Assembly (NCBI GenBank): GCA_018433675.1
Contig: JAHDQS010000045.1
Span: forward strand, 70,356 to 134,355
DNA: 64,000 nucleotides
Source of the DNA: Clostridia bacterium
GTDB lineage: Bacteria > Bacillota > Peptococcia > DRI-13 > SM3-B62
Direction: 5' to 3'
Part shown: positions 1-38,946 of the stretch, piece by piece
Layout: each line of letters starts with the position of its first letter
Numbering within the stretch: position 1 is the stretch's first letter
Position numbers and translations under genes: made by a program
The notes under the pieces: model-generated
Database searches by the model: none
Told to the model about the DNA's origin: nothing
Seen by the model: only the letters and a program-made list of their open reading frames with translations

Positions 1-1010
1 AGGCAAAGGGGCAGGTGCTGCTGCAGCTTCTGGCGGAAGCGGGAGAGGGTGGGCAGCTTGCTTACGCTTGCGGAGGATTGTTGAGGACCGCTCGTCTGGA
101 AAATCCCAAAATCAACGGGCAAATCATTACGGTGGAGCAATTATCCGGACAGCCGGTAAAGACTGTTGCCCGTCTTTTGCAAAGAGAGGCTGCAGGCTGC
201 AGGGATGGATGCCTGGAGGTATGCTACCGGGGAGAACCCTTGCGACGTTACCGGAAAAAGCTGCGGGAGATAACGGCAAAAGCCGAAAAACGAGCCTCGT
301 GGCTGAAGGAAAACGGGGTTTACCTCATCACCGGCGGTCTAGGGGGATTAGGTCTTTTACTGGCCGGGTATCTGGCCGGTAAGAGCAAGGTCAAACTTGC
401 CTTGTTGGGACGGAAAGAATTAAGTATTAAAACCGAAGAATCGCTCAGGCAATTGAGGAAGAAGGGTGCAGAAGTCCTGTATCGCCAAGTGGATGCAGGT
501 AATAAAGAGGATGTGGTCAAAGTCGTTGAAGATATCAGGAAGACTTTGGGGCCGCTTGCCGGGGTGTTCCACTGCGCCGGGGTGTTAAAGGATAAGGTGA
601 TTATTCAAAAGGGACAGGATGAAATAAAAGAGGTATTCAGACCGAAAGTACACGGTCTGTGGAATTTAGATGAAGCCGTCGGGTCGGAGAAGCTCGACTT
701 TTTTGTGGCCTTTTCTTCCCTTTCGGCTGTGCTGGGAAACCTGGGACAGGCGGATTACGCCGGTGCCAACGCTTTTATGGACAGCTTTGCCGAGCTGCGT
801 CGTCTGAGGGTCGAAAAGGGAGAACGATACGGCAGGACCATGACTGTGAATTGGCCCTTGTGGTCCGCAGGAGGGATGAGGGTCGATTATGAGACAGAGA
901 AAAAGTTTTACCATGATTTGGGATTGAGTCTCTTGCCGACGGTCTTTGGTCTTTGGGCCTTAGAAGCGGTAATGGCTCAAGAAGAAGCCCAGAGTGTGGT
1001 GCTTTACGGA
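1..1010 (+). other. PKS domain KR-a (structural subdomain cut by window edge)
   Basis: LLRTARLENP structural motif; Rossmann GVYLITGGLGGLG (~nt 311); HCAGVLKD; GQADYAGANAF. Confidence 0.85.
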
Positions 1011-4000
1011 CATGAGGAGAGAATTAAAAAGCACCTGGATGGATACAACGAAGGCGGGGAGGCTACAGCAGTCGGAGAGAACAGCGGGGCAGGGACAGAG
1101 GCGGAAATATGGCTGGGTGAAGACCGGAAGTCTGTCGATACTGATGAAGTGGCGATTATTGGGCTGGCGGGTCGTTATCCCCGCTCGGAGACCATCGAGG
1201 AATACTACCGCAACCTGCGGGAAGGGAAGGACTGTATCACCGGTTTTCCCCGGGAAAGATGGAAGAACTACCGGTTTTCCTACGATGTGGAGAAGTTCTA
1301 TCGATATGGCGGTTTTCTTAAGGGCATTGATTGCTTTGATCCCCTCTTTTTTAATATTTCTCCCCGTCAGGCGGAGAGGATGGATCCCCAGGCCAGGTTG
1401 TTCCTGGAAACGGCTTGGGAGGCTTGTGAGGATGCAGGATGGTGTCAGGACAGGCTTTCGCACCATTACCCCTCGTCAAGCGAGAAAAGCGTGGGAGTCT
1501 TTGTCGGGGTGTTTTGGAGTCACTATGAGTTGTTTGGGGCAGAAATTACCCAAAGGGGTATGCCGCTTTCCTTTGGGATAGGGTCGGCGGCCATAGCAAA
1601 CTGGGTGTCGTACTGCCTGAACCTGCACGGGCCGTCGATGGCTGTCGACAGCATGTGCTCATCTTCATTGACGGCCCTTCACTTGGCCTGTGAGAGTCTG
1701 AGAAAGGGCGAGTGCCATTATGCCATTGCCGGCGGCGTGAATCTTGTTACTCATCCTCATAAGTACATTGCCTTACAGGAAGCGGGGTTTTTGGCTTCGG
1801 ACGGAGTCAGCCGTAGCTTTGGGAAAGGCGGGGACGGGTACGTGCCGGGAGAGGGTGTGGGAGCAGTGCTGGTTACTACCCTGTCTAGGGCGGAGAGAGA
1901 AGGTTATCCCATTTACGGCGTTATCAAAGGCTCCGCCCTCAACCATGTCGGCAAGACAGCGGGAGTGACGGTGCCGGATCCTGTGGCTCAAGCAGAGGTG
2001 ATTGCGGATGCCATTAAACGGGCGGGAGTAGATCCGCGTACCATCGGGTATCTCGAGGCTCATGGTACAGGGACTTCCCTGGGGGATCCCATTGAGGTTC
2101 AGGGTTTACAGAGGGCTTTTGCGAAATGGACTGTGGATAAGCAGTTTTGTGCCATAGGCTCTTGTAAGTCGAATATCGGCCATCTGGAAGCGGCTGCGGG
2201 GATGGCCGGCTTAACAAAGGTCCTGTTGCAGTTTAAACACCGGGAAATATTCCCCTCCTTGCATGCTCGAGAGCTAAATCCGCACATCCCTTTCGCTGAG
2301 ACACCTTTTGTGGTGGTCCAAGAGTTGAGGAAGTGGGAGCCATATTCGGCAGGGACAGATAAGGGTAGCGTGGTTCATCCCCGGCGTGCCGGCATCAGTG
2401 CCTTTGGGGCCAACGGTAGCAACGCCCACCTTATACTTGAAGAATATATCAGGCCGGAGCAGGTCCGGCTTAAAGAAGGACCGACGGCGGCAAGGCTACT
2501 CGTACCCCTTTCTGCCGCCAGCAAAGGGCAGCTGTTGCGTTACGCAGAAAAGCTGTTGGCCTTTTTACTGAAAGAAGAAGGAGTTGGCGACGGAAACGGC
2601 AACCCCATTGCTACGGCTGTCAGGGCAACAGACAGGCTGCTTTTGGAGAAGCCGGAAACGGAAATACAGGAAGTTCTCGCGTTATTACTGGGTGTTGAAA
2701 AAAAGGAAATATCGCCGGAACAGGAGTTTAGCGAGTTGACCATAGCCTATCCTGAACTCCTCGCTTTACATCAGGCCTTGTGTACGAAATGGGGGATAGA
2801 GCTGGCGGAGAAAACCGTTCTTAGCGCCGGTTCTGTTAGCGAATTGGCCGCAGAAATAACGAGCAGGCATCGGGAGGAGCTGGCGGAAGATGCCCTCCGG
2901 CGGCTTGATCCGGTCTCCCTGGCCTATACCCTGCAGGTGGGACGGGAAGCCCTAGAGGAAAGGGTCATTTTTCTGGTCGGAAATATCAAGGAACTGGTAC
3001 GGGAATTGCAAGCCTTTATAGATAGAAAAGGAGAGGCCGGTAATGCCGGCAGTTGTTATGTGGGATCGGTCAAGGAAGATTTGACGGAAGCGGAGGAATC
3101 TGCAGTCGCCCCATGGTTCAATGAGGGTAAGGGAGAACGGTTGGCCGAATTGTGGGTACGGGGAAGGAAAATACCTTGGGAAAATCTCTATGGAGAGGTA
3201 AAGCCTCGGCGGATCAATCTGCCTACTTATCCCTTTGCCAGGGAGAACTATTGGCTGCCGGAAGCCGGAGTAGAAGCAGCCGGTAGAATGCCGTTTTTGA
3301 CGGCAGGTCATGCTCTTCATCCTCTGTTGCATCAGAACACCTCCGACCTTTACGAACAAAGATATACCACAAGCTTCAGCGGAGAGGAGTTTTTCCTGGC
3401 AGACCACCAGGTGGAGGGTAAGAAGATCCTGCCGGGAGCAGCCTGCCTGGAAATGGCCGGAGCAGCGGTAGTCCAGGCTACAGGGGTGCAAGGCGGGGTA
3501 GTGCGGCTGAAAGACGTTGTCTGGATCCGGCCCCTGGTGGTTGATGAAGTACCGCTACAGGTAGAGGTCGGGCTTTCCCTCGGTAAGGAGGGTGAGATTG
3601 CCTTTAGGATATATCAAGGGGAGACGATTTGCAGCCAGGGTACGGCTATTGTTTCAGGTGAGGCGGAGGGCCCAGCGACTGTGGATATTTCCAAGCTTTT
3701 GGAGCAATGCGGGGAAGGGGTTCTTGCGGCTGCAGAATGTTATGAGATCTTTAAAAGGATGGGGTTGGAATACGGGCCCGGACACCAAGGCCTGGAAGAG
3801 ATCCATCTCGGAAAGGAACAGGTGCTGGCCAGGTTGGTCCTGCCTTCTTTCCTGGAGGATACCCTGGATGAATATGTGTTACATCCCGGTATGCTGGATG
3901 CGGCTTTGCAGGCGTCACTGGGCTTGTTGACAGCCGAGGCGGGAGGCCGGGCCATTGACAAACCCTTACTGCCCTTTGCGTTGGAGGAAATAGAAATTAT

Positions 4001-7000
4001 AAAGGGCTGTACCTGCAGGATGTGGGCAGTGGTGCGACAAAGTAGCAAAAGCCTGGTTGGAAGCGGAAGCAGGAGATACGATCTGGAACTTTGCAGTGAT
4101 GACGGCAGCGTGTGTGCCCGCTTAAGGGGTTTAACGATGAGAGAAGGAACAAAGCGGGAGCTAGCGTTTTATGCCCCCATCTGGCAAGAAAGCAGCAACG
4201 CCGAGGAAGGCATAACGGCAACGGGATATGGGCAGCACATGGCAGTGGTGTGCGGGACAGACGAGCTATGGTGCGCGAGTGTGACAAAAAGTCTGCAAGA
4301 GCAAATAGCGGGTATAAAGTGTCTTGTCATACCTTCCCCCCAACAGGAGGTAGCCGCAAGATTCCAGGCTTGTGCTGCCATGGTGCTGGAGGAGGTCGCC
4401 GATATTTTTAAGGAAAAAGCCAGCGAGAGGGTTTTGTTGCAGGTCGTCGTTCCCAAGGAGGGAGAGGAACAGGTCTTGGCCGGGCTTTCCGGTCTCCTGA
4501 GGACGGCCAGGTTAGAAAACCCCCGGTTGGTGGGACAGGTGGTGGAAATGCCGGGGCAGATCGAGGGGACCGGCGTGGCAAAAATCTTGCGGGAGAACGC
4601 CGCAAGGCCTCATGAGGATTGGGTGAGCTATAGGGCTGAGAAACGGTTGGTGAAGTGTTGGCAGGAGGTCACGTCAACATACAAAAAGGAGAAGATGCCC
4701 TGGCAGAAAGGCGGTATCTATCTTTTAAGCGGTGGCGCCGGCGGTTTGGGAAGGATACTGGCAGAGGAAATCGTCAAGAAGGTCGGGGACGTGACCTTAA
4801 TCCTTTCCGGTCGTTCGCCGCTTTCGGAAAAGAAGGCGGCTCGGCTTAAAGAGCTAGGGAAAAAACAGAGCCGGGTTGTATATCGACAGGCAGATATCAC
4901 CGATAAAAAAGAGACTGTCAAGTTGATCCAAGACATTGTCAAAGAGTATGGCCCCCTTAACGGGATTATTCATTGTGCCGGGGTGCTGCGCGATTCCTTC
5001 ATTATCAACAAGACCGGGGAGGAACTGCGGGAGGTGTTGGCTCCGAAAGTGGCCGGACTGGTCAATCTGGATGAGGCCTCAAAGGATTTGCAGCTTGATT
5101 TCTTCCTGCTGTTTTCTTCCGGGGCGGCGGTTTTAGGAAATGTAGGTCAGGCCGATTATGCGGCGGCTAATGCCTTTATGGATATGTATGCCAGTCTTCG
5201 TCAGGATTTAGTGAACAAGGGGCAGCGCCGGGGTAGGACGTTGTCTTTGAACTGGCCTCTGTGGAAGGATGGCGGTATGCAGCCGGACGAGAGAACAGCG
5301 GGATTTATTGAGGAAAGCATGGGTATGGCGGTTCTGACAACAGAGGAAGGGATCCGTGCCTTGTATCGCTCTTTTGCCGGTGAAGAGAACCAGGTCATGG
5401 TGGCAGGAAGTGAGTTCAGACTGCCGGCCTTTCTCCGGGGAGAAAAAGAGGTAAAGGCGGAAAACACGGTCGGTTATGCCGGTGGGGAAGGAGCTGGGGA
5501 AAGCACTGAAGGCATTGTCCCGGAAAAAGTGGAGGGCTTTTTGAAGAAGCTTCTTTCCGTCGAACTGAAGCTGCCGCCGGAACGGATAGAGGCAGATGCC
5601 CTGTTGGAGAAATATGGAATAGATTCGGTGATGGTTTTACGATTGACCAACGAGTTGGAAAAAACCTTTGGATCCTTGTCAAAAACCCTCTTTTTTGAAT
5701 ACCGGAGTATTCGGGAATTAAGCGGATACTTTCTGGAATTCCACCGGGGACGGTTGCTTGAATTGATAAAAACAGGGCAAGATACTCCGGCGGCAACGAT
5801 GCGGAGAAACGGCGGGACTCTGAGGATTGCAGGTGGAAACAGTAAGGCTTCCGAGACATACGGACAGCAGAGGTTTTTAACGAAAGCAGACAGTGCGGGG
5901 CTGGGGAATAAAATCGCGCCGCAGAATAGGGATATTGCCGTGATTGGTCTGGCCGGGCGCTATCCCGGAGCAAGGAACATCAGGGAGTTTTGGCGGGTTT
6001 TACGGGAGGGTAGGGATTGTATTACCGAGATTCCGCGGGAACGTTGGAATCACAGTCAATACTATGACGAGGAAAAGGGCAGATTAGACAAAACCTATAG
6101 CAAGTGGGGCGGCTTTTTGGAAGGCGTGGACGAGTTCGATTCCCTCTTTTTCAACATCTCACCCCGGGAAGCGGAACTTATGGACCCACAGACCAGGTTG
6201 TTTCTGGAATGTGCCTATGCCGCCATAGAGGATGCCGGGTATACCCGCAGGTCCCTTGCTCAGCGTAGTATGGCGGGCTTAAAGGGCAATGTTGGCGTCT
6301 ATGTCGGGGTGATGTACGAGGACTATTTATTGTATGGGGCTCAGGGAGAAAAGAGGGAAAACGGAGGGGCCCTTTTCCCGAATACTTCTTCTATTGCCAA
6401 CCGTGTTTCATATTCAGGCGATTTTCACGGTCCCAGCATGGTGGTCAATACCATGTGTTCTTCCTCCTTGACTTCCCTTCATTTAGCGTGTCGGGGTTTG
6501 CAGCGGGGAGAATGTGAGGTTGCCCTGGCGGGAGGCGTCAACCTTTCCCTTCATCCCCTTAAATATCTCTCTCTGGCCCAGGCTAACTTCCTGTCCAGCA
6601 AGGGACGTTGTGAAAGCTTTGGGAAGGACGGGGACGGGTATGTGCCCGGGGAAGGGGTTGGAGCCGTACTGCTCAAACCCTTGGTTCAGGCAGAGGAGGA
6701 CGGTGATCATATTTACGGCGTTATCAAGGGAACCGTTCTTAACCATGGCGGGAAAACCAACGGCTATACCGTTCCTAACCCTCAGGCCCAGTCTGCGGTT
6801 ATCATCTCGGCCTTGGAGGAGGCCGGTATCAACCCGCGACTTCTCAGCTATCTGGAAGCACATGGTACAGGGACGATTCTGGGTGATCCCATTGAGATCA
6901 ATGCCTTGACCGCCGCTTTTCGTAAGTACACCCGGGATGTTGGTTTTTGCGCCATTGGCTCCGTCAAATCAAACATTGGTCACTGTGAGAGCGCGGCGGG

Positions 7001-10000: not shown

Positions 10001-13000
10001 TACAACAAAAGAGGTAATCACTGCTTATCCCGCCAAACTGCCTGCGGTCGTTGACCACTTGCCCCGGGAAGTCCTGCCGGAGGACAGCCGACTGCAACTG
10101 GCGGCTGCTTCGCTAAAACAGCAAGAGGAGATGGAAGAGCTGTTGGGCAGGATGCTGTTGGCTAAATTGAACGTTCTGGGGGTTTCACAGCAAGACGGGA
10201 TCAAGGCAGAGGAAATCGCCAACAGGGCCGGGATTCTTCCCTCCTACGAGAGATGGCTGGACGAAAGTCTTGCCAAGATAGCGCAGCTTCAGGGGGAAGG
10301 TTCTGTTTCAACCGAGGATGAGGGCGAGCTTTGGCAGGAATGGGAACAAAAAAAGGTGTCCTGGCCGGAGAATACGGGGCTTAAGGCGCGGGCCGCACTG
10401 GTGGAAAAAACCCTGGCAGCTTTGCCGGAAGTGCTTACCGGGAAAAGAGCGGCTCCGGATGTAGTCTTTCCCGAGGCTTCCTTCGAATTGGTGGACGGGA
10501 TTTACAGGGATAATCCTCTTGCCGATTACTGTAATGAGGTATTGGCAAGAACGGTAGATTTATATATCCAAGAACTCCTGGGGCAAAAGCCAAAAGCCCG
10601 TCTGCGCCTTTTAGAAATCGGGGCGGGGACCGGAGGTACTACCTCCGTTGTCTTAGAAAGGCTGCAGCCTTATCGGGAGCAAATCGCGGAGTACTGTTAT
10701 ACCGATATATCAAGGTCGTTTTTACTATATGGGGAGCGGGAATTTCCTTCCCGGGCTCCGTATTTGACCTGTCAGGTCTTTGATGTGGAGAAGCCGCCGG
10801 CAGAACAGGGTGTGGCGGTGGATCATTACGACCTGGTGATCGCCGCCAATGTCCTGCATGCCACCCGGAACATACGGCAGACCCTGGGCAATGTCAAAGC
10901 GGTGTTGAAACAAAACGGTCTGCTGCTCATAAACGAGATAAGCGAAAGATCTCTGTTTCTGCATTTGACCTTTGGGCTTTTAGAGGGCTGGTGGCGGTAT
11001 GAAGATTCGTTGCTGCGGATACCGGGCTGTCCGGGGCTGGACCCTCAAGGTTGGCAAAATGTTTTGGGGTTAGAGGGTTTCAGGCAGGTATTCTTTCCGG
11101 CCCAAGGGGCCCACGCTTTGGGGCAGCAAATAGTGGCGGGTGCCAGCGATGGCCTCATCCGGCAAAGGCTGCGGGATGAAGAAGAAACGATTTCTGTGAA
11201 GTCCAGCGGGCCTTTTGGGGTAGAGAAGCAGGTTATTCCTTTAAGGATTACTCCGAGGCAGCAGGGTTCAGAGATAACCGACGATTTGCTTCGCCAAAGG
11301 CTTACGGCATATCTGAGAGGTTTGGTAGGGGAGACCTTAAAAATAGCGGAGGATAAGATTGATACGAGGGAGGATTTTAGAAATTACGGCGTAGACTCGA
11401 TTCTTGTCATCCAACTGACAAATGCCCTGCGCCAGGTGCTGGTTGATGTGAGCACTGCCTTGTTTTTTGAGTATCCGACGATTGATGCCCTGACGGAGCA
11501 TTTCCTGGAGACCCAAAGGGATGCGCTGCTGAAGCTGTGGGGCGGGGAGGAAAGGGAAAGGCAAAAGGAGGGAACAGCTCAACAACAAGAAAGAGGATTT
11601 TCCCGGGTGTATTTCCCAGATGCAGTGCCATTTAGCAGCAGACGGCAAAAGGGACGCTTCCTGCAACGGAGTGAAGATAAAGACGGTATTGCCGTGATAG
11701 GGCTGGCCGGACGCTATCCTCAGGCGGAGGATGTTCATCAATACTGGCTTAACCTAAAAGCCGGAAAAGACTGTATCAGCGAGATTCCACGCGAGAGGCG
11801 GACAGAGGGATGGTCCAATAATTGGGGCGGGTTTATGGACGATATAGATAAATTTGATCCGTTGTTTTTCCGGATTTCTCCTCAAGAGGCGGAAAAAATG
11901 GATCCCCAGGAACGCTTGTTTCTACAGACGGCCTACGCCTGTATCGAGGATGCCGGGTATAGGCCGGAGAGGTTGTGTCCTTCCGGGAAGACCGGGGTGT
12001 TTGTAGGGGTCATGAACGGTAATTACTCTGCCGGAACGCCCTACTGGTCGATTGCCAACCGGGTTTCGTACTGTTTGAACCTGCAGGGACCCAGTATGGC
12101 TGTGGATACAGCCTGTTCTTCTTCGTTGACGGCGCTGCATTTAGCCGTGGAGAGCATCTATAACGGGGTGAGCGAGTGTGCCTTGGCAGGAGGGGTCAAC
12201 TTAGTCGTGGATCCTGTGCACTATCGAAGGTTGACTGCTATGAATATGCTCTCTGTCCAGGGTAAGTGCAGGGTGTTCGGAGAAGGTGCCGATGGATTTG
12301 TCGTAGGCGAGGGCGTTGGTGTGGTATTGTTAAAACCTTTGGCACAAGCGATTGCCGATAACGACCATATTTACGGCATCATTAAGGGAACCGGCATCAA
12401 CGCCGGAGGGAAAACAGGAGGATATACCGTTCCGAATCCCCAGGCTCAGGCCCGGGTGGTCCGTGAAACACTGCAAAAAAGCGGGATCCAAGCCCGCAGG
12501 ATCAGCTATTTAGAGGCCCACGGTACAGGCACGGCTTTGGGAGATCCCATTGAAATAGCGGGTTTGTGCAGAGCCTTTGGCGAGGATACTCAGGATACGC
12601 AGTTTTGTGCCATCGGTTCGGCAAAGTCGAACATAGGGCACGCTGAGAGCGCTTCAGGCATTGCCGGTTTAACCAAGGTGCTGCTGCAGTTACAATACGG
12701 GCAGCTTGTGCCTTCCCTGCATTCCCGGAAGCTCAATCCCGAGATAGACTTTGCCGGGAGTCCCTTTGTGGTGCAGCAGGAGTTGAAAGAGTGGAAACGT
12801 CCGGTCTTGGAGATAGGCGGTGCAAGGAAGGAGTATCCGCGTATCGCCGGTATTTCCTCCTTTGGTGCCGGCGGTGCCAATGCCCACGTCATCGTCGAAG
12901 AGTACGTGCCACGGGAGCAAGGGGTCAGCGGGACGATCATGAACACCAGCGAACCTGTGATGATTGTCCTTTCGGCCCAAGATGAAGAACGGCTTGCTGC

Positions 13001-16000: not shown

Positions 16001-18938
16001 CCGGGGGCATTTGTCCCGGCTATCAAGGAAAAACGCGGAGCAGGCGGCAGTGAGTTATGACAAAAATGAAGGGTATAAAGAGACGGCGGCGGTAAGTATG
16101 ATGCCAGAAGGCCGAAGACGGTCGCGTATGGCCCGCTTTGTGGGCGGTGAGAAGCCAGGTGCAATGGAGATCGCTATTGTGGGTTTGGCGGGGCGCTATC
16201 CCGGGGCGAGAAACCTCAGGGAGTTCTGGCAGAACCTTTGTCAGGGGGTGGATTCCATCACGGAGATTCCCCGGGAGCGCTGGGAGCACAGTCGGTACTA
16301 CGATGAAGAGAAAGGTAAGCCGGGGAAAACATACAGCAAATGGGGTGGATTTCTGGAGGGTGCGGCGGAATTTGATCCCCTCTTTTTTAACATCACGCCA
16401 TACGAGGCTGAATTAATGGATCCCCAGGGGAGGCTGTTTTTGCAATGTGCCCATGAGGCCTTGGAAGATGCGGGTTACACCCGGGAAAGACTGAAAAGAA
16501 ACCGGGGCCAAGGGTTGGAAGGCAATGTAGGTGTTTACGTGGGTGTAATGAACGAAGACTATGCGCTTTTGGGAGCCCGGGAACAGGCTTGGGGCAAGCC
16601 GGTGGTTCTGGCGGGCAATCCTTCGGCGATTGCCAATAGGGTTTCATATTTCTACAATTTCCATGGCCCGAGTATGGCTGTGGATACCATGTGTTCATCC
16701 TCCCTGACGGCCATTCATTTGGCCTGCCGGGGAATACAAAAGGGCGAGTGTGAAATGGCTTTGGCCGGGGGGGTCAATCTTTCCCTGCATCCCGGTAAAT
16801 ACATCATGCTCGGACAGAACAACTTTGTCTCCAGTAAAGGACGGTGCGAGAGCTTCGGGGAGGGAGGCGACGGTTACGTGCCCGGTGAAGGCGTGGGCGC
16901 TATCCTTCTTAAACCGCTGGCCAGGGCTGTTGCGGAACAAGATCAGATTTATGGGGTTATTAAGGCCACGGCGGTCAATCACGGCGGGAAAACCAACGGC
17001 TACACCGTTCCTAATCCCCAAGCCCAAGCCGATGTGATCGGCAGGGTTTTCCGGGAGGCCGATATTGATCCCCGGACCATCAGTTATGTAGAAGCCCACG
17101 GGACAGGGACGATCCTGGGGGATCCCATTGAGATAACCGGCTTGAGTAAAGCCATTCGGGAGTATACTCAAGATGCGCAGTTTTGTGCCATCGGTTCCGT
17201 CAAGTCAAACATCGGACACGGTGAAAGTGCGGCAGGAATTGCCGGGTTGACAAAGGTGCTGCTGCAGTTGAAGCATGGCTGTCTGGTACCTTCGCTCCAC
17301 TCCGCCACGCTGAATTCTCACATCGATTTTGCCCAGAGTCCCTTTATTGTTCAGCAGGAATTGGCAGAGTGGGAACGGCCCCTGCTCGAAGAGGGCGGAA
17401 AGATGAAAGAATATCCCCGTCTGGCAGGGGTTTCGGCCTTTGGGGCGGGAGGATCTAATGCTCATTTAGTGGTGGAAGAATACCGGGAGCGGGACGAACT
17501 GCAAACGAGGGGCAGTGAATTTGCAGGGCCGGTTGCGGTGGTGTTGTCGGCAAAAAATGAGGCGAGGCTGAAGGAGCAGGCAGGACAGCTTATTACTTTT
17601 CTTGAGGAGCAGGGGACCGATGGGGTCGCTTTGCACGATCTAGCCTATACCCTGCAGTCCGGGCGGGAAGCGCTGGAAGAACGTTTGGCCTTGGTGGCAG
17701 GAACGATTCCGGAGTTGGTGGAGAAATTAAAGGGCTTTTTGGAGGGTAAGGAAGAAACTGAGCTTTATCGAGGACAGGTGAGAGTAAGGGACGGTCGGCC
17801 GGCAGATATTGCGGCGGATGAGGATCTGGAGAAAACCGTTGCTGCCTGGATCGCCAAGAAAAAGTACGGCAAACTGCTGGAGTTCTGGGTTCAGGGGGCG
17901 GCGATTGATTGGGAAAGGCTCTATGAAGGGGCGAAACCAAGACGTATCAGTCTTCCCACCTATCCCTTCGCGCAAGAAGAGTATTGGGCACCGCAGCCGG
18001 AGGGAGGGAAAACCGCAGATGAGGCGGCAGCAACGGGTAGTTCGGCGGTGCTCCATCCTCTGGTCCACCGGAATACCTCTGATTTTAAGGAGCAGCGGTA
18101 CAGTAGCCGCTTTACGGGCAGTGAATCCTTCTTGACCGGGCACATAGTGCAGGGCAAGGCTATCCTTCCCGGAATTGCCTATCTGGAAATGGCACGGGTA
18201 GCCCGGGAACAGGCCTTAGGAGAAGGTGACAGTCTTTCGGCGGGACTCCGGTTTAAGAAGATGGTCTGGTCACGCCCACTGGCGGCGGCGGAACAAACGG
18301 GCCCGGTACACATCAGGCTTTTCCGCAAAGAAAGGGAGGAAGTCGCTTATGAGATTTACCGTACTTCATCCCCAAAAGGCGGGGAAGTGTTGGTAGCTGG
18401 TCAGGGTGTCATGGCCGGCGAAAAGGGACTGAAAGGCTCCAGGCTGGAGATAGAAGAATTAAAAAGTCAGTGTGACCAGAGTGTTATGGATGCAAACCAA
18501 TATTATGAATCCTGGCGGAAGAAGGGATATGCTTTCAGCCCGATGTACCGGGGGCTGGAGAAGCTCTATCTGGGGAGGGATCAGGCGCTGGCCAAGGTGA
18601 GTCTGCCAACGCCTTTCTCCGACAGACCGGAACGATATGGACTGCATCCCGCTTTGTTGGAGGCAGCCCTGCAGGTTGGTGTAGTGCTGAACAATGGGGT
18701 GGAGAGATTTGGGCCGCTCTTGCCCTTGGCGTTAGAGGAGATGGAGTTTTACGGCACGTGTCCTCCGGTTTTGTGGGTGCTGGTCAGCCGTGCCGAGGGA
18801 GAACAAAGAAAAGGAAATCTGCTGAAGCTCAATCTTAGGCTGGCCGCTGAGGATGGAGCTCTCTGGGCAGCGGCCGAGGGTTTTACGGTCAAGCCGACAA
18901 ATGTGCCGGTGTTTGAACCGGATAAGGGGGGTGTTTGA
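1..18938 (+). CDS. trans-AT type I polyketide synthase subunit 1 (5' end upstream of window): KR / KS-DH-KR-ACP / KS-DH-KR-cMT-ACP / KS-DH-KR-ACP / KS-DH
   Basis: 6307-codon ORF; the frame stays open back to nt 3. Four complete KS with Cys/His/His motifs, each followed by an AT-less flanking region ending LPTYPFA. No acyltransferase domain. Confidence 0.95.
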   Translation, partial: AKGQVLLQLLAEAGEGGQLAYACGGLLRTARLENPKINGQIITVEQLSGQPVKTVARLLQREAAGCRDGCLEVCYRGEPLRRYRKKLREITAKAEKRASWLKENGVYLITGGLGGLGLLLAGYLAGKSKVKLALLGRKELSIKTEESLRQLRKKGAEVLYRQVDAGNKEDVVKVVEDIRKTLGPLAGVFHCAGVLKDKVIIQKGQDEIKEVFRPKVHGLWNLDEAVGSEKLDFFVAFSSLSAVLGNLGQADYAGANAFMDSFAELRRLRVEKGERYGRTMTVNWPLWSAGGMRVDYETEKKFYHDLGLSLLPTVFGLWALEAVMAQEEAQSVVLYGHEERIKKHLDGYNEGGEATAVGENSGAGTEAEIWLGEDRKSVDTDEVAIIGLAGRYPRSETIEEYYRNLREGKDCITGFPRERWKNYRFSYDVEKFYRYGGFLKGIDCFDPLFFNISPRQAERMDPQARLFLETAWEACEDAGWCQDRLSHHYPSSSEKSVGVFVGVFWSHYELFGAEITQRGMPLSFGIGSAAIANWVSYCLNLHGPSMAVDSMCSSSLTALHLACESLRKGECHYAIAGGVNLVTHPHKYIALQEAGFLASDGVSRSFGKGGDGYVPGEGVGAVLVTTLSRAEREGYPIYGVIKGSALNHVGKTAGVTVPDPVAQAEVIADAIKRAGVDPRTIGYLEAHGTGTSLGDPIEVQGLQRAFAKWTVDKQFCAIGSCKSNIGHLEAAAGMAGLTKVLLQFKHREIFPSLHARELNPHIPFAETPFVVVQELRKWEPYSAGTDKGSVVHPRRAGISAFGANGSNAHLILEEYIRPEQVRLKEGPTAARLLVPLSAASKGQLLRYAEKLLAFLLKEEGVGDGNGNPIATAVRATDRLLLEKPETEIQEVLALLLGVEKKEISPEQEFSELTIAYPELLALHQALCTKWGIELAEKTVLSAGSVSELAAEITSRHREELAEDALRRLDPVSLAYTLQVGREALEERVIFLVGNIKELVRELQAFIDRKGEAGNAGSCYVGSVKEDLTEAEESAVAPWFNEGKGERLAELWVRGRKIPWENLYGEVKPRRINLPTYPFARENYWLPEAGVEAAGRMPFLTAGHALHPLLHQNTSDLYEQRYTTSFSGEEFFLADHQVEGKKILPGAACLEMAGAAVVQATGVQGGVVRLKDVVWIRPLVVDEVPLQVEVGLSLGKEGEIAFRIYQGETICSQGTAIVSGEAEGPATVDISKLLEQCGEGVLAAAECYEIFKRMGLEYGPGHQGLEEIHLGKEQVLARLVLPSFLEDTLDEYVLHPGMLDAALQASLGLLTAEAGGRAIDKPLLPFALEEIEIIKGCTCRMWAVVRQSSKSLVGSGSRRYDLELCSDDGSVCARLRGLTMREGTKRELAFYAPIWQESSNAEEGITATGYGQHMAVVCGTDELWCASVTKSLQEQIAGIKCLVIPSPQQEVAARFQACAAMVLEEVADIFKEKASERVLLQVVVPKEGEEQVLAGLSGLLRTARLENPRLVGQVVEMPGQIEGTGVAKILRENAARPHEDWVSYRAEKRLVKCWQEVTSTYKKEKMPWQKGGIYLLSGGAGGLGRILAEEIVKKVGDVTLILSGRSPLSEKKAARLKELGKKQSRVVYRQADITDKKETVKLIQDIVKEYGPLNGIIHCAGVLRDSFIINKTGEELREVLAPKVAGLVNLDEASKDLQLDFFLLFSSGAAVLGNVGQADYAAANAFMDMYASLRQDLVNKGQRRGRTLSLNWPLWKDGGMQPDERTAGFIEESMGMAVLTTEEGIRALYRSFAGEENQVMVAGSEFRLPAFLRGEKEVKAENTVGYAGGEGAGESTEGIVPEKVEGFLKKLLSVELKLPPERIEADALLEKYGIDSVMVLRLTNELEKTFGSLSKTLFFEYRSIRELSGYFLEFHRGRLLELIKTGQDTPAATMRRNGGTLRIAGGNSKASETYGQQRFLTKADSAGLGNKIAPQNRDIAVIGLAGRYPGARNIREFWRVLREGRDCITEIPRERWNHSQYYDEEKGRLDKTYSKWGGFLEGVDEFDSLFFNISPREAELMDPQTRLFLECAYAAIEDAGYTRRSLAQRSMAGLKGNVGVYVGVMYEDYLLYGAQGEKRENGGALFPNTSSIANRVSYSGDFHGPSMVVNTMCSSSLTSLHLACRGLQRGECEVALAGGVNLSLHPLKYLSLAQANFLSSKGRCESFGKDGDGYVPGEGVGAVLLKPLVQAEEDGDHIYGVIKGTVLNHGGKTNGYTVPNPQAQSAVIISALEEAGINPRLLSYLEAHGTGTILGDPIEINALTAAFRKYTRDVGFCAIGSVKSNIGHCESAAGIAGVTKVLLQLKYGRLVPSLHSEMLNPHIDFDRTPFVVQREGAEWKGSPARIAGVSSFGAGGANAHVLIAEYIPEKESKEGTKGTVPVVPVVLSAKNEERLREQAAQLAEVLATEEYMSAELADVAYTLQVGREAMTERLGIIAGSVMELADKLRGFAKDGDGSEGVYRGQAKGGQEEFALFSSDEDMQEAVDKWITGQKYAQLLQMWVKGFAFDWRKLYPGRRPCRISLPTYPFARERFPLPEIGGSRAGGVSALHPLLACNTSDLSEQRYTTVFTGQEFFLSDHVVNGRRILPGVVYLEMARAAVALAAGDFHGREESWSWQNIVWSRPCEVSDIPKEVHVGLYPAGEKEISFEIYSAATEDPEARVVYSQGSGVLLLLQEPELLDIEGWKQACSREVILAEDCYEAFREMGIEYGPGHRGIERIYQGEGVVLAKLALPAAVSGTLEQYVLHPALLDAALQAAVGFSLKESAPPTPALPFALDSLEVFGSCTPVMWALLRVREQDLGRSERHGIEIELSDAQGVVRARMKGLVTRPVADKKAPTETADVNPAREATSPGGKVMLLPVWDAVTPAKGREFPSATQRVVIIGGQSGLLEAVQLQYPQGAVLSLQSGEGVEEITKKLADQGEVEHLIWLPLVTRNGPPEDEALFKEQKAEVIQVLRIIKALLGLGYGDKELGWTLLTMGNQAAVQGLSGVLAKEYPHWQVRVVDLETCDDLPLAEVFKILPDPQGEPLLYRKGEWLRQKLIPLKYVGEKQTLYREGGVYVVIGGAGGIGEVWSEYMIKTYRAQIIWLGRRKQDHKIEEKIERLARLGPAPLYIQADATRLEDMEQAYGLIKERYAQVNGVVHAAIVLRDGTLANMQESDFLEAFEAKADVCLRLAQVFKGVKPDFVLFFSSAQSFAKPPGQGNYTAGCLFKDAFAKRITREWGCPGKVMNWGYWSQVGAVASSNYERRMAQAGIAPIVPNEAMEALEGLLSGSGEQCVLINTTKPLAMEGVTTKEVITAYPAKLPAVVDHLPREVLPEDSRLQLAAASLKQQEEMEELLGRMLLAKLNVLGVSQQDGIKAEEIANRAGILPSYERWLDESLAKIAQLQGEGSVSTEDEGELWQEWEQKKVSWPENTGLKARAALVEKTLAALPEVLTGKRAAPDVVFPEASFELVDGIYRDNPLADYCNEVLARTVDLYIQELLGQKPKARLRLLEIGAGTGGTTSVVLERLQPYREQIAEYCYTDISRSFLLYGEREFPSRAPYLTCQVFDVEKPPAEQGVAVDHYDLVIAANVLHATRNIRQTLGNVKAVLKQNGLLLINEISERSLFLHLTFGLLEGWWRYEDSLLRIPGCPGLDPQGWQNVLGLEGFRQVFFPAQGAHALGQQIVAGASDGLIRQRLRDEEETISVKSSGPFGVEKQVIPLRITPRQQGSEITDDLLRQRLTAYLRGLVGETLKIAEDKIDTREDFRNYGVDSILVIQLTNALRQVLVDVSTALFFEYPTIDALTEHFLETQRDALLKLWGGEERERQKEGTAQQQERGFSRVYFPDAVPFSSRRQKGRFLQRSEDKDGIAVIGLAGRYPQAEDVHQYWLNLKAGKDCISEIPRERRTEGWSNNWGGFMDDIDKFDPLFFRISPQEAEKMDPQERLFLQTAYACIEDAGYRPERLCPSGKTGVFVGVMNGNYSAGTPYWSIANRVSYCLNLQGPSMAVDTACSSSLTALHLAVESIYNGVSECALAGGVNLVVDPVHYRRLTAMNMLSVQGKCRVFGEGADGFVVGEGVGVVLLKPLAQAIADNDHIYGIIKGTGINAGGKTGGYTVPNPQAQARVVRETLQKSGIQARRISYLEAHGTGTALGDPIEIAGLCRAFGEDTQDTQFCAIGSAKSNIGHAESASGIAGLTKVLLQLQYGQLVPSLHSRKLNPEIDFAGSPFVVQQELKEWKRPVLEIGGARKEYPRIAGISSFGAGGANAHVIVEEYVPREQGVSGTIMNTSEPVMIVLSAQDEERLAARAKQLLALLEREEAQTGGGLKEMAYTLQVGRTPMEERLGIVVSSRQELAEKLQDFLSEKQGIHGLYRGQVKRKKEALAVLAEDEEMQETLSKWMQRKKYGRILEMWVQGLDFDWKQLYQGENPRRISLPTYPFAKESYWQKGDQKVSAGVEHLHPLLHRNTSDLTEQRFSTVFTGQESFLTDHVIKGKNILPGVVCLEMARAAAEHAGAVLWGEKAAVRLQKVVWLRPLVVEEDPVEVNIGLYPQENGEIAFEVYSGTDGGTEENNEPVVFCRGEVKGFPSLTGGRCEIAALQEACGQRIMTKEECYEAFCGMGLEYGPGQQGLERIEAGQGQALARLSLASVGATPAAGSVRSGYVLSPGIMDAALQSILGLTDGQGELKPALPFALEEMTVFGALVPSMWAYVRYSEGSNAEERIRKFDIDVCDEEGNIAVMIKGYSTREMAGGVELKALPPAETFLLKPAWREKAVAGENNENEKGGAAKITMQRLIIFCEPSEEFTQRYHQKGESFIEGGRTLLFTSRQKSLADRFQEYAAGLLEEIKKMCRQKTEDEVLIQVVVSPGKKRQQPKEAEVFGALAAMLKTARLENFRIRGQVIATKDLRDIERLLAENSKSPLETNISYREGKRLVESWQEEGEPVKAKAAIPWREGGRYLITGGLGGLGFIVARDIAQKAKGSLIILTGRSQLDGHKKTKLQELERLGDTEKKGVRIEYRQLDVSDRQAVTGLFTEIREEFGGLEGIIHSAGVIRDSLILKKTKENLLEVLLPKTTGLVNLDEASKDLSLDFIVAFSSLTGAFGNVGQVGYAAANAFMDAYAVYRKELTMKKQRQGRMISIGWPLWEEGGMKVDEATGAGMKDRTGLVPLDSESGLRAFYQAVASGEERVLVVKGDTTEIKEKLIRSDEGTATGAACETKQEQSEEKAGGLERETAIYLKTLLSEVLKLPPEKIDEEAPLEKYGIDSVMVMQLTTELEKTFGTLSKTLFFEYQSILELAQYFLDHHRGHLSRLSRKNAEQAAVSYDKNEGYKETAAVSMMPEGRRRSRMARFVGGEKPGAMEIAIVGLAGRYPGARNLREFWQNLCQGVDSITEIPRERWEHSRYYDEEKGKPGKTYSKWGGFLEGAAEFDPLFFNITPYEAELMDPQGRLFLQCAHEALEDAGYTRERLKRNRGQGLEGNVGVYVGVMNEDYALLGAREQAWGKPVVLAGNPSAIANRVSYFYNFHGPSMAVDTMCSSSLTAIHLACRGIQKGECEMALAGGVNLSLHPGKYIMLGQNNFVSSKGRCESFGEGGDGYVPGEGVGAILLKPLARAVAEQDQIYGVIKATAVNHGGKTNGYTVPNPQAQADVIGRVFREADIDPRTISYVEAHGTGTILGDPIEITGLSKAIREYTQDAQFCAIGSVKSNIGHGESAAGIAGLTKVLLQLKHGCLVPSLHSATLNSHIDFAQSPFIVQQELAEWERPLLEEGGKMKEYPRLAGVSAFGAGGSNAHLVVEEYRERDELQTRGSEFAGPVAVVLSAKNEARLKEQAGQLITFLEEQGTDGVALHDLAYTLQSGREALEERLALVAGTIPELVEKLKGFLEGKEETELYRGQVRVRDGRPADIAADEDLEKTVAAWIAKKKYGKLLEFWVQGAAIDWERLYEGAKPRRISLPTYPFAQEEYWAPQPEGGKTADEAAATGSSAVLHPLVHRNTSDFKEQRYSSRFTGSESFLTGHIVQGKAILPGIAYLEMARVAREQALGEGDSLSAGLRFKKMVWSRPLAAAEQTGPVHIRLFRKEREEVAYEIYRTSSPKGGEVLVAGQGVMAGEKGLKGSRLEIEELKSQCDQSVMDANQYYESWRKKGYAFSPMYRGLEKLYLGRDQALAKVSLPTPFSDRPERYGLHPALLEAALQVGVVLNNGVERFGPLLPLALEEMEFYGTCPPVLWVLVSRAEGEQRKGNLLKLNLRLAAEDGALWAAAEGFTVKPTNVPVFEPDKGGV
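1143..2447 (+). other. PKS domain KS1 (elongating)
   Basis: VAIIGLAGRYP; DSMCSSSL (Cys codon 1656-1658); EAHGTGTSLGDP; KSNIGHLE; ends GSNAHLILEEY. Confidence 0.9.
2581..2915 (+). other. ~110-aa insertion in the KS1 flanking subdomain with a carrier-protein-like, serine-less segment
   Basis: Lies between LLAFLLKEE and VSLAYTLQVGREA, which are ~10 aa apart after KS2-KS6. Contains LLLGVEKKEISPEQEFSELTIAYPELLALHQAL...SVSELAAEI. Confidence 0.5.
3311..4145 (+). other. PKS domain DH1
   Basis: LHPLLHQNTSD; LADHQVEGKKILPG (His codon 3405-3407); YGPGHQG; LHPGMLDAALQ. Confidence 0.9.
4425..5410 (+). other. PKS domain KR1
   Basis: LLRTARLENP; GGIYLLSGGAGGLG; HCAGVLRD; GQADYAAANAF. Confidence 0.9.
5529..5745 (+). 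other. PKS domain ACP1
   Basis: LEKYGIDSVMVLRL (Ser codon 5625-5627). Confidence 0.9.
5931..7217 (+). other. PKS domain KS2 (elongating)
   Basis: NTMCSSSL (Cys codon 6456-6458); EAHGTGTILGDP; SNIGHCE. Confidence 0.9.
7764..8615 (+). other. PKS domain DH2
   Basis: LSDHVVNGRRILPG (His codon 7857-7859); YGPGHRG; LHPALLDAALQ. Confidence 0.9.
8760..10000 (+). other. PKS domain KR2
   Basis: GGVYVVIGGAGGIG (~nt 9294); HAAIVLRD; GQGNYTAGCLF. Confidence 0.85.
10180..11155 (+). other. PKS domain C-methyltransferase (cMT)
   Basis: SAM-binding LLEIGAGTGGTT (~nt 10607-10645); DLVIAANVLHAT. Located between KR2 and ACP2. Confidence 0.85.
11284..11520 (+). other. PKS domain ACP2
   Basis: FRNYGVDSILVIQL (Ser codon 11397-11399). 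Confidence 0.9.
11685..12905 (+). other. PKS domain KS3 (elongating)
   Basis: DTACSSSL (Cys codon 12114-12116); EAHGTGTALGDP; SNIGHAE. Confidence 0.9.
13457..14330 (+). other. PKS domain DH3
   Basis: LTDHVIKGKNILPG (His codon 13548-13550); YGPGQQG; LSPGIMDAALQ. Confidence 0.9.
14650..15670 (+). other. PKS domain KR3
   Basis: MLKTARLENF; GGRYLITGGLGGLG; HSAGVIRD; GQVGYAAANAF. Confidence 0.9.
15787..16005 (+). other. PKS domain ACP3
   Basis: LEKYGIDSVMVMQL (Ser codon 15882-15884). Confidence 0.9.
16168..17482 (+). other. PKS domain KS4 (elongating)
   Basis: DTMCSSSL (Cys codon 16692-16694); EAHGTGTILGDP; SNIGHGE. Confidence 0.9.
18051..18900 (+). other. PKS domain DH4 (variant motifs; C-terminal domain of subunit 1)
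   Basis: LTGHIVQGKAILPG (His codon 18141-18143). The YGP motif reads GYAFSPMYRG, and the Asp motif reads LHPALLEAALQ (Glu where DH1, DH2, DH3 and DH5 have Asp). Confidence 0.8.
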
Positions 18939-18939
18939 G

Positions 18940-21900
18940 ATGAAACGACAACAAGAAACGGCTCCTTTAGCCGCGGTATCGGAGAAGACGAGAGTAATGC
19001 TGTACAAACCTTGTTGGCGGGAAGGAAGAATAAAAGGGCAGGGGAATACAGCCGGGGCGGACTTCAGGCGACTGGTGGTTTTTTGCGAACCACAGGGTCT
19101 TCAGGCGGAGGATATTGCCGGGATGATAGAAGGGACAAACTGTCTGATCCTGCAATCCCGGGAAAAGGAAATTGAAAAAAGATATCAGGAATATGCCCTG
19201 GAGTTGCTGCGAGAGATTCAGTCCATCATGGGAAAGAAGGATGAGTCACGGGTGCTGATCCAGGTTATGATATCCTCCCAGGGGGAACAACGCTTATTCG
19301 GCGGACTCTCCGGATTGCTTAAAACCGCCCAGGCTGAGTCCTCCCGCCTGTGGGTTCAGCTCATTATGACGGATGATTGGGAGAAAAAGGGTGTAATCGA
19401 AATGTTGAGGGAGAACGGGTTATCCCCTCAGGATGCCCAGGTCCGTTACCGGGACGGCAAACGGCAGGTGACCGGTTGGGAGGAAGTAACGGGAGCTGAA
19501 CTCGCGGAGAGCATTCCCTGGCAAGATAAAGGCGTTTACCTTATTACCGGAGGCGCGGGGGGCTTAGGCTTGCTCTTTGCCTCGGAAATAGCAAGAAGGG
19601 TCAAAAACCCGGTTATTGTTCTAGCCGGGCGTTCTTCTTTGGATAAGGTGGAAAAGAGGCTGGCCAAGAAGTTTGCCGGTTTGGGGGCCAGGATCGTTTA
19701 CAGACAAGGGGATGTGTCACAAAAAAGGGAGACGGTTGACCTCGTGACAGGCATCAGAGAGGAATTTGGCAGCCTGAACGGCATTATTCACGCCGCCGGT
19801 GTTACCAGGGACAGTTTGATTATTAACAAGACTGCGGATCAACTGCGGGAGGTTTTCGCTGCCAAGGTGGAGGGGTTGCTGAATCTGGAGACGGCTTGCC
19901 GGGGAATGGAGCTTGATTTTCTGGTGCTCTTTTCCTCTGTGGCGGCGAGTTTGGGCAATCCGGGACAGGCTGATTATGCTGCGGCCAATGCTTTTCTTGA
20001 CTGTTATGCTGAATACCGCAGGGAACCGGAAACTGACGAACAAAAGCAGTTCGCCCGCATCATTTCGTATAACTGGCCCCTCTGGCAGGAGGGAGGAATG
20101 CATGTGTCGCCGGAGGCGGAAAGGAGTATGCGGCAGAAAGGGTTCGTTCCTTTGGGGACTGTCGGCGGAATCAAGTCGTTTTATCAGGGTTGGGCTTATG
20201 GCGGGTCGCTGTTTATGGTGCTGGAGGGGGATGGACTCCGGTTGAAGGAAGTGATGTCCGCTCGAGCCTATCCCCGGTTGTCTGACCGGAAGGGCCCGGT
20301 GTCGGTCAAGCCGGAGAGGCTGTTGCAAGAGACACTGGGGCGTTTGAAAGAGTTATTTGGTGAGATCACCGGCTTAAGCAGGGAGCAAATTGATGCCCAG
20401 GAAATCCTGGAAAGTTACGGGATAGATTCTGTCATGATAAGCAAATTGAACAGTAGGCTGGAATCGGTTTTCCGGGAGGTATCCAAGACCCTGTTCTTTG
20501 AAGGACGGACTCTGGAGGCTGTAGCCCGTCGCCTTTGTGAGGACTATCCGGAAGAATGCATGGCCTGGGCTCATTTGCAGGGCGGCGAGGAAGAGCCCGG
20601 AGATAAGGAACTCTTTGGTGATGATGCTTTGGAGTGGGGCGAAGATGAAGAGTTCCCGGTTTTGAGGCCTCTGAAGGCCCCGCAGATGAGGGCAGAGGGA
20701 TTTGAACCGATTGCCGTCATCGGTTTAAGCGGGAAATATCCTCAGGCGGAAAACTTGACGGAGTACTGGGAGAACCTGCAGGCGGGCAAGGACTGCATCA
20801 CGGAAATACCCTCGGAACGCTGGTCTCTGGAGGGTTTTTACCTTCCGGATCAGCAAAAGGCTGCGGCTACGGGGAAGAGCTACTGTAAGTGGGGCGGCTT
20901 TATAGACGGGTTTGCTGACTTTGACCCCCTCTTTTTTAACATTTCTCCCCGGGAGGCCTTAAACATGGATCCCCAGGAACGCTTGTTTATTGAGCATTGC
21001 TGGCAGGTCCTGGAGGACGCGGGATATACCAGGCAGCAGCTGATGGAGGAATACGGCGGTAGGGTCGGGGTTTTTGCGGGTATCACCAAAACCGGCTTTG
21101 CTTTGTATGGTCCGGCCTTGTGGAGGCAGGGGGAGCAGGCCTTTCCCCGAACTTCCTTTAGTTCCTTGGCCAATCGGGTCTCTTACCTTTTTGACCTGCG
21201 GGGGCCCAGCATGCCGGTGGATACGATGTGTTCTTCATCCTCGACGGCAATCCATGAGGCCTGCAGGTGCCTCCAGCGGGGTGAATGTGAAATAGCCATT
21301 GCCGGTGGGGTCAATCTTTATCTCCACCCCGCCAACTATAACGAGCTGTGTGTGCAGCAGATGCTGTCACCGGATGGGAGAAGCCGGGCTTTTGGTGCCG
21401 GTGCCAACGGTTTTGTACCGGGAGAAGGGGTCGGCTGTGTCCTCTTGAAATCGCTGTCACAAGCGGTTGAAGACGGTGATAATATTTATGCCGTCATCAA
21501 AGGAACGGCAGTTAACCATGGCGGAAAAACCAACGGCTACACCGTGCCCAACCCCCAGGCTCAAAGTGAGGTGATTAGGGCGGCTCTGGACAACGCGGGA
21601 GTCAAGGCCAGAGAAGTCAGCTATTTGGAAGCTCATGGCACGGGTACCAGATTGGGTGATCCCATAGAAATTACGGGGGCCAAGCAGGCCTTTGAAAGTG
21701 ATACCCAAGAAAGAGGCTATTGTTCCCTAGGCTCTGTCAAGTCGAATATCGGGCATTTGGAAGCGGCGGCAGGGATTGCGGGGCTGACCAAAATAGTATT
21801 GCAGATGAGGTACAAGAAGCTTGTGCCGAGCCTGCACGCTAAAGTTTTAAACCCAAACATCAACTTTGCCAAAACCCCCTTTGTCGTGCAACAGGAGGCA

Positions 21901-30522: not shown

Positions 30523-30523
30523 A

Positions 30524-35154: not shown

Positions 35155-35183
35155 AAACCGAAATATGGGGAGAGGTGAGATGA

Positions 35184-38257: not shown

Positions 38258-38278
38258 GGTGCATTAAGAGAGGACAAA

Positions 38279-38287
38279 TGTTATAAT
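38279..38287 (+). promoter_or_regulatory. extended -10 promoter element (TGTTATAAT)
   Basis: TGnTATAAT match 60-70 nt upstream of the 38352 start. The -35 is weak. Confidence 0.35.
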
Positions 38288-38351
38288 GGCTCTAACGCTG
38301 TAGAAAGATATAAAAGGCGAGCAACCTTTTTTATACGAGGGAGAGATGAAT

Positions 38352-38717: not shown

Positions 38718-38946
38718 ATCGATAAGTTCAACGTTTTAGCTCCCCCAGTATTTATTGAAAATCACCAAGTGACGACAATAGTAATAAAATAGGAGTAATA
38801 TGTAAACTAATAATGCTCTAAACTGCCTATATTTACCAGGACATGATTAGAGGATATTCGACATATTAGGGAGAATTAACAAAAGGGTAGGATAAACAGT
38901 CTAGATCAAAGCAATGTGATGAAGCTGGAGAAAAGGAGGTGAAACG

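Follow-up and report, generated by a model that had tools for sequence, protein, structure and literature searches.

In cis-acyltransferase (cis-AT) polyketide synthases (PKSs) and in fatty acid synthases (FASs), the acyltransferase (AT) is nested in the ketosynthase (KS)–AT linker domain. Megasynthases also hold pseudo-domains, such as the psi-KR and psi-ME of FASs and PKSs or the KS0 and the inactive dehydratase (DH) and methyltransferase (MT) domains of trans-AT PKSs, in which the fold is kept, the catalytic or cofactor residue is lost and the role is structural. The function of the KS flanking subdomain has been stated to be unclear (PMC11260071). In the summary given by PMC9491710, LINKS (Gay et al. 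2016) is a helical elaboration of this flank that is thought to mediate contacts at the side of the KS dimer. An overlooked acyl carrier protein (ACP) in the KS0-OR linker of MmpE from the mupirocin pathway has kept its serine and was argued to be active, in contrast to an “evolutionary structural remnant (ACP0)” (PMC7619045). Here we describe a serine-less, ACP-like insert in the flanking subdomain of KS1, encoded near the start of a stretch of 64,000 nucleotides from a Clostridia bacterium (GCA_018433675.1, contig JAHDQS010000045.1, positions 70,356–134,355), referred to as the window in the following. The insert is predicted to be a folded pseudo-ACP of a widespread subfamily that has probably been retained for something other than carrying substrates.

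The end of a trans-AT PKS cluster occupies the first 33.9 kb of the window. Eight KS domains were located in its three open reading frames, ORF1–ORF3 (blastp with KS1 as query), and no AT was seen among the domains annotated there. An AT-less flanking subdomain follows every KS except KS7, i.e. seven of the eight. In KS1, an insert of 112 codons (GVGDGNG...RRLDPV, 2580–2915) lies between the post-KS helix and the AYTLQVGRE element, whereas 10–20 residues separate the post-KS helix from [AL]AYT[LF]QVGR in KS2–KS6 and KS8. The first-pass annotation of this DNA had put the gap at about 110 residues against 10–20 elsewhere, which agrees well with the flanks of the window KSs: six ordinary ones are short, KS1 alone is long and KS7 is flankless. 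All peptide strings quoted in it were found in the ORF1 translation, and of its coordinates, 2581–2915, the end is correct while the start is one base out of frame (2580). The region is composed as follows, all features being on the + strand:

300–992, + strand: upstream ketoreductase (KR), from the translation and home-made domain hidden Markov models (HMMs), with no ACP between KR and KS1.
1146–2438, + strand: KS1 ketosynthase (Pfam ketoacyl-synt, 1.7e-79; Ketoacyl-synt_C, 5.6e-41).
2439–2579, + strand: first part of the flanking subdomain, with strand LLVPLSAAS and helix KGQLLRYAEKLLAFLLKEE (Pfam KAsynt_C_assoc; AlphaFold strand 458–464, helix 467–484).
2580–2648, + strand: N-terminal linker of the insert, Gly-rich GVGDGNGNPIAT followed by a short pre-helix (model residues 487–505 with a predicted local distance difference test score, pLDDT, below 50; ratio of nonsynonymous to synonymous substitution rates, dN/dS, 0.64).
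2649–2867, + strand: predicted pseudo-ACP core with four ACP-fold helices (AlphaFold, Foldseek, HMM scores, dN/dS 0.23).
2748–2750, + strand: TAT codon, Tyr at the position of the phosphopantetheine-bearing Ser, TIAY in place of G-x-D-S (HMMER against PDB ACPs, MAFFT columns, codon read-out).
2868–2915, + strand: C-terminal linker HREELAEDALRRLDPV, predicted continuation of helix IV (AlphaFold helix 571–593, residues 581–590 at pLDDT 64; dN/dS 0.54).
2916–3269, + strand: rest of the flank, SLAYTLQVGRE ... LPTYPFARENYW, in which the LINKS-helix region lies (Pfam RhiE-like_linker, 2.1e-12; model helices 655–667, 670–678 and 685–688).
3318–4172, + strand: DH of the module started by KS1, KS1-DH-KR-ACP (Pfam PKS_DH_N; architecture).

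Both halves of the flank are present in order around the insert, with PF16197 (KAsynt_C_assoc, 5.2e-09) before it and PF22336 (RhiE-like_linker, 2.1e-12) after it, up to the terminal LPTYPF, and the landmarks align with those of the six other flank-bearing KSs of the window. The Cys-His-His triad of KS1 is intact (DSMCSSS, EAHGTGT, SNIGH). A survey of 214 collected PKS proteins together with the window ORFs revealed a bimodal distance between the KS end and the AYTLQ element, with 297 cases at 50–79 residues, 52 at 140–189 residues and almost none between. The long form is thus a discrete state rather than the tail of a length distribution. It is a minority class, found in 12% of the KSs (in a sample enriched for the long form) and in one of the seven flank-bearing KSs of the window, so that a segment of this length is not common in ordinary flanks. 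As the insert precedes AYTLQVGRE and the LINKS-bearing part is of normal length in insert-bearing KSs, the insert is not LINKS. Replacement of LINKS by the insert was considered and rejected as well, because the distance from AYTLQ to LPTYPF has a median of 104 residues in insert-bearing and ordinary KSs alike, a comparison made on KSs other than KS1.

Profile comparisons and structure prediction agree on the nature of the insert. With an HMM built on 150 canonical ACPs of other, unrelated PKS proteins it scored 27.2 bits; the best of 2000 shuffled versions reached 6.4 bits, so that the likeness to carrier proteins far exceeds chance. The profile built from the window insert and that of an orthologue from a Clostridia metagenome-assembled genome (MAG; locus L001, insert 74% identical, with 12 additional residues in the C-terminal linker) had ACPs as its top nine PDB matches. 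Searched against the PDB, a profile of 72 inserts gave 156 matches with E < 0.01 (best 2.5e-16); all 60 that were listed belong to carrier proteins or to the carrier domains of synthases. The AlphaFold model of the insert, calculated from the 72-member alignment, reached a pLDDT of 87.6 and a predicted template modelling score (pTM) of 0.75, with helices at residues 15–27, 47–61, 67–72 and 76–87 in ACP order. When this model was compared to the PDB with Foldseek, the top 50 matches were all carrier proteins (TM-score 0.65–0.83, root-mean-square deviation 1.3–3.1 Å, mostly 1.3–2.5 Å). In the model of KS1 with its flank (pLDDT 86.8), the pseudo-ACP core is predicted at a pLDDT of about 90–95 and the Gly-rich N-terminal linker at less than 50, and helix IV extends as a long helix back toward the flank. 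As far as prediction goes, these data show an ACP four-helix fold nested in the KS1 flanking subdomain, where the first-pass annotation had proposed a carrier-like segment. The AlphaFold run suggested there returned the four helices, and the profile searches, by way of the family profile, the likeness to PP-binding domains.

The serine to which phosphopantetheine is attached in canonical ACPs has been replaced. In the best PDB alignments, read residue by residue, the Tyr of TIAYPEL falls on the serine of the DSL motif. In a MAFFT alignment of 78 inserts with 300 canonical ACPs, the same Tyr occupies a column that is Ser in 100% of the canonical sequences. No Ser lies within three residues of the attachment position in the window insert. 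HMMER, MAFFT and the codon itself thus bear out the earlier proposal that IAYPEL sits where DSL should be. Phosphopantetheinyl transferases (PPTases) require the Ser hydroxyl. Because Tyr replaces Ser, the sequence indicates that the insert is not phosphopantetheinylatable at the canonical site. Across the 78 inserts the column is filled most often by Pro (29), followed by Thr (8), Ile (7), Arg, Gln and Ala (6 each), Leu (5) and Tyr (3). Ser was found in two, both in protein P0146 from a Pyrinomonadaceae MAG (residues 1364–1532 and 4498–4654, with GLDSA and GLESA). The HMM of the inserts is still preferred by both, which may represent an ancestral, still loadable state or a reversion.

Other features of the inserts set them apart as a group. 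The turn before helix II is retained as [ED]-Y-G-[FLV]-[DE], with Gly in 72 of the 78 inserts, whereas the helix-III stretch T-L-F-[FY]-E-[YH]-P-T, a strongly conserved feature of working trans-AT ACPs, has been lost. The inserts are acidic, with a mean net charge of -7 compared to -5 for canonical ACPs. When inserts were held out of training, the insert HMM gave 35 of 39 a better score than the canonical-ACP HMM did (median +21 bits), compared to none of 250 held-out canonical ACPs, and the window insert, likewise held out, gave 46.9 versus 24.8 bits. On this comparative evidence, the nested serine-less ACPs are shown to form a distinct ACP subfamily, always at the same flank site in trans-AT PKS ketosynthases. 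In four members (P0068 6382–6547, P0120 2357–2533, P0185 3073–3241 and P0199 3867–4027), loop I is about 11 residues shorter (…LKT----GYE…); these are still more degenerate versions of the nested domain.

The distribution of the insert became apparent with a profile of flank, insert and flank, run against a set of 1.84 billion representative proteins. The 150 best matches contain 78 stretches, in 66 giant PKS proteins, that cover the full profile; the insert region of the window is one such full-length stretch (profile positions 1–176). Other searches were less productive: one with the 179-residue insert and flanks gave no homologue at E ≤ 1e-3 in a service that on another query returned only proteins shorter than about 600 residues and that giant PKSs may therefore escape, and a scan of metagenome contigs with the two-sequence alignment found no relative. 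A search with the KS end and flank did retrieve three Planctomycetes fragments (P0001, P0005 and P0006) with the insert at the same point, and two of these three, scanned alone, pass the Pfam PP-binding cut-off (P0001 at 30.8 and P0006 at 34.2 bits). Sources of insert-bearing proteins include Ruminiclostridium cellulolyticum, Aquimarina aggregata, Methylobacter, Clostridia MAGs and a Pyrinomonadaceae MAG with three such proteins in one cluster. Further hosts, namely Brevibacillus laterosporus, Bacillus thuringiensis, B. cereus, Paenibacillus sonchi, Klebsiella grimontii and Bacillus velezensis, came from a tblastn search of plasmids. The nested domain occurs in at least five phyla, across which fold and subfamily signature are kept at 12–33% identity.

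The B. velezensis match, on plasmid-collection entry pDMB05-1, is mlnG of the macrolactin cluster (L010, 16701–24083), which adjoins pdhA. Gene lengths and overlaps at this locus agree with the mlnD–I entries tabulated in PMC6873887. The MlnG insert follows the first KS at about residues 1115–1225 (SEFGVGPLEL; …SEFGVGPLELSRM…) and scores 32.8 bits with Pfam PP-binding, so that Pfam-based annotation would probably call it an ACP; with the insert HMM it scores 60.8 bits, compared to 45.3 bits with the canonical-ACP HMM. The search of other trans-AT PKSs for the same insertion, as recommended in the first-pass annotation, was therefore successful, with MlnG among the finds, and the insert can no longer be seen as a peculiarity of the ORF1 protein.

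Comparison of the window with L001 suggests that the domain is maintained. Over the 73 codons of the pseudo-ACP core, dN/dS for this one sequence pair is 0.23, similar to the rest of the flank (0.21) and the DH (0.23), whereas the N-terminal and C-terminal linkers reach 0.64 and 0.54. These values show apparent purifying selection on the core and relaxation of the linkers. The persistence of fold and signature across phyla agrees with this pattern. With the coherent and widespread subfamily at one site in addition, the suggestion that the insert is a relic is not supported.

Insert-bearing KSs appear to be regular elongating enzymes. The full Cys-His-His triad is present in 87% of them, compared to 72% of ordinary KSs, and few are of the KS0 type. 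The domain sets upstream differ mildly, DH-KR-ACP preceding 48% of insert-bearing and 29% of ordinary KSs. Where the first KS of a protein was considered, an N-terminal DH-ACP(-KR) preceded it in 9 of 22 insert-bearing versus 5 of 126 ordinary cases. Still, an N-terminal DH-ACP as a rule for the insert was rejected, because ORF3 of the window starts DH-ACP-KS8 and is insert-free. Four KR-KS junctions in the listed architectures have no ACP in between, and each of the four involves an insert-bearing KS. KS1 is closest to an insert-bearing KS, that of P0202, at 69% identity and in the same unusual DH-ACP-KR-KS order. A single clade of insert-bearing KSs was likewise rejected, as these are only partly clustered (nearest neighbour insert-bearing in 38%, compared to 11%).

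Taken together, we consider it probable, without being certain, that the insert is a pseudo-ACP that does not act as a carrier and has been retained on elongating KSs as a module for structure or interaction. A structural or interactional role follows by elimination, since the domain appears unloadable and has lost surface features of working ACPs, yet is selected at one site. The pseudo-ACP is nested in the KS1 flank, in the loop that joins its first helix to AYTLQ, a region that would be the host of the LINKS lateral contacts in trans-AT PKSs and of the AT in cis-AT PKSs. It would no longer carry substrates and would act, on the outer (lateral) side of the KS dimer, as a folded, doubly tethered module for protein–protein interaction or scaffolding. 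The docking or adaptor role proposed in the first-pass annotation is plausible. The lateral placement is favoured because the flank forms the lateral face of the KS dimer with the LINKS contacts (PMC9491710), and because its function is described as unclear (PMC11260071). The pseudo-ACP could bind a partner there, be it a trans-acting enzyme or a neighbouring synthase; alternatively, it could serve as an ACP look-alike that modulates access of real ACPs to the KS. More tentatively, and with rather less conviction, the nested serine-less ACP might be an unrecognised, widespread functional module, a dedicated adaptor or gate on the flank of selected KSs that either brings in a partner or governs lateral assembly or the access of ACPs. 

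Several points weigh against retention as a structural or interaction module. There is no direct evidence for any interaction partner, and the domain sets downstream of insert-bearing KSs cover the same spectrum as those of ordinary KSs, singling out no chemistry or trans-acting enzyme. The window insert alone reaches 17.5 bits with Pfam PP-binding (PF00550), below the gathering score of 20.8, and matches profile positions 2–27 only, the N-terminal half; in view of this score, the fold and the family profile are the basis of its family membership. The models yielded confidences only, and topology alone indicates how the domain would be placed with respect to KS, LINKS helices and ACP docking sites. 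Moreover, it should be noted that the dN/dS of the core, coming from a single pair, is supportive rather than conclusive.

Four other explanations were weighed. In the first, which follows the adaptor idea of the first-pass annotation, the serine-less look-alike would attract the trans-AT or some other enzyme able to read ACP surfaces, and raise its local concentration at the module. An acidic, ACP-like fold on a flexible linker would suit this purpose. The flank function is stated to be unclear (PMC11260071), and such recruitment would be a special case of the interaction module favoured above. Conversely, the surface that partners read is precisely what has degenerated (Ser, start of helix II, helix-III motif), the insert is found on one or a few KSs per assembly line though every module needs a trans-AT, and it shows no correlation with downstream domain sets. 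We regard this explanation as unlikely.

An intramolecular mimic, which would gate chain transfer or elongation by occupying or shielding an ACP-docking site of its own KS or flank, is quite improbable. In cis-AT PKSs the linker subdomain is part of the ACP docking cleft; here, both ends of the domain are tied to that subdomain, the host KSs are elongating, and the scarcity of Ser would fit selection against a second loadable thiol beside the KS. Still, no structural or covariation evidence speaks for such gating, and the recognition features of helices II and III are not conserved.

We see very little prospect for a neutral remnant of an ancient domain insertion, tolerated in a permissive loop without function. 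The scatter of insert-bearing KSs over the KS clades and the loss of loop I in four family members would be in line with it, but the core evolves at the level of the functional neighbour domains while the linkers are far less constrained, fold and signature persist across phyla, and length and position are tightly conserved. Finally, a working carrier in which attachment is to a non-canonical residue or to some other serine close by deserves next to no credence: the two Ser-bearing inserts of P0146 and the precedent of the overlooked active ACP in MmpE (PMC7619045) could be cited in its favour, but the window insert has Tyr with no Ser close by, and the family mostly has Pro, which is unmodifiable.

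The remainder of the locus provides the context of KS1. Over its first 28.9 kb, the window matches a contig assembled from reads of SRR13787005, a public run, at 100% identity (L009). ORF1 continues past the left window edge and is 6793 residues long in full (P0066), with the order DH-ACP-KR-KS1-DH-KR-ACP-KS2-DH-KR-cMT-ACP-KS3-DH-KR-ACP-KS4-DH. The other two PKS ORFs in the window are:

18853–30522: ORF2.
30455–33895: ORF3.

The overlaps of ORF1 with ORF2 (18853–18938) and of ORF2 with ORF3 (30455–30522) are a product of listing ORFs from the earliest start codon; the ORF2 call in L009 begins directly after the ORF1 stop and has 3860 instead of 3889 residues.

ORF1 has an unusual start, DH-ACP-KR-KS1, in which an ACP is absent between KR and KS1 (window 300–1150; L001 5960–9700; L009 10001–11445). 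The ACP of this KR module precedes the KR, since DH and PP-binding domains lie N-terminal of the KR in P0066 and L009, with the same order in the L001 orthologue. The gene preceding ORF1 terminates in a KS without flanking subdomain. The order DH-ACP-KR-KS is common to P0202, P0146 and P0177, where the post-KR KS is also insert-bearing. The cMT between KR and ACP of the KS2 module is a C-methyltransferase (10020–11372; Methyltransf_12, 4.5e-17). Upstream of ORF1, L009 encodes a free-standing carrier protein of 86 residues with intact serine (4507–4767, GVIDSF), the neighbours of which are a 4552-residue hybrid of nonribosomal peptide synthetase (NRPS) and PKS and a PKS gene of 1703 residues.

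At the end of ORF2, KS7 (29182–30384) lacks a flanking subdomain and has EANGSGS in place of EAHGTGT, typical of KS0. ORF3 opens with DH-ACP (30455–31474). KS7 and this DH-ACP start form a split dehydrating bimodule, after which the insert-free KS8 comes next. KS8 itself (31670–32974) has EAAAVGS in place of EAHGTGT and is of a non-elongating type. The assembly line terminates as KS8-flank-ACP with the tail …LTLEEIDELIEKGEIV (33572–33895), and the window contains no thioesterase; the unrelated fragments P0035 and P0037 show the same type of ending. From 33892 to 52382, the PKS is followed by a major facilitator superfamily (MFS) transporter and then by housekeeping genes, namely LUD-domain lactate-utilisation proteins, an SH3 amidase, a racemase, RNase PH, trigger factor, ClpX and two Lon-type proteases, which mark the end of the cluster.

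The nested pseudo-ACP has apparently gone unremarked so far. The insert is present in none of about 15 trans-AT KS-linker entries in the PDB, which match only the part of the profile after the insert. No description of a serine-less ACP in a flanking subdomain was found in the literature, although a prior mention is possible as papers in subscription journals were mostly outside the scope of the search, and the nested domain goes unmentioned in a review that covers the architecture of the macrolactin cluster. Its recognition has practical consequences. As some members pass the Pfam threshold, annotation pipelines can call an extra “ACP” after a KS, leaving trans-AT PKSs with wrong module boundaries and wrong predicted products; such false calls would be mended by checking for the serine or by using a subfamily HMM. 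Engineering of trans-AT PKSs handles KS and flank as one unit, and some of these units carry an additional folded domain. A conserved and selected pseudo-carrier moreover offers a handle on the role of the flank surface, be it lateral assembly, partner docking or ACP gating, and the adaptor or gate proposed above would, if true, give the flanking subdomain a concrete, testable role. MlnG appears well suited for this purpose, because B. velezensis is a producer amenable to genetics, in which the product is easily read out.

Compared to canonical trans-AT ACPs (PF00550), the pseudo-ACP shares the four-helix fold, the [ED]-Y-G-x-[DE] turn and the hydrophobic core, and the family profile matches the mupirocin, DisA and CurA ACPs at E = 2.5e-16. 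It differs in the absence of Ser (Tyr here, mostly Pro in the family), in the loss of the helix-III T-L-F-F-E-Y-P-T motif and in forming a separable subfamily. Canonical ACPs lie between domains on flexible linkers, whereas the pseudo-ACP lies inside another subdomain. The MmpE ACP is likewise an overlooked carrier sequence after a trans-AT KS, but its serine is kept and its activity has been argued for. With LINKS the pseudo-ACP has in common that it is a helical elaboration of the same linker subdomain; LINKS, however, is a three-helix element of about 36 residues after AYTLQVGRE, as opposed to an ACP fold of about 75 residues before it. The nested AT of cis-AT PKSs and FASs resembles the pseudo-ACP in being a whole globular domain in a loop of the same small α/β linker subdomain, but the loop and the fold are different, and the AT is catalytically active. 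In keeping its fold without the cofactor residue, the pseudo-ACP joins the pseudo-domains of megasynthases, of which the same cluster holds two further cases in KS7 and KS8, both of the KS0 type.

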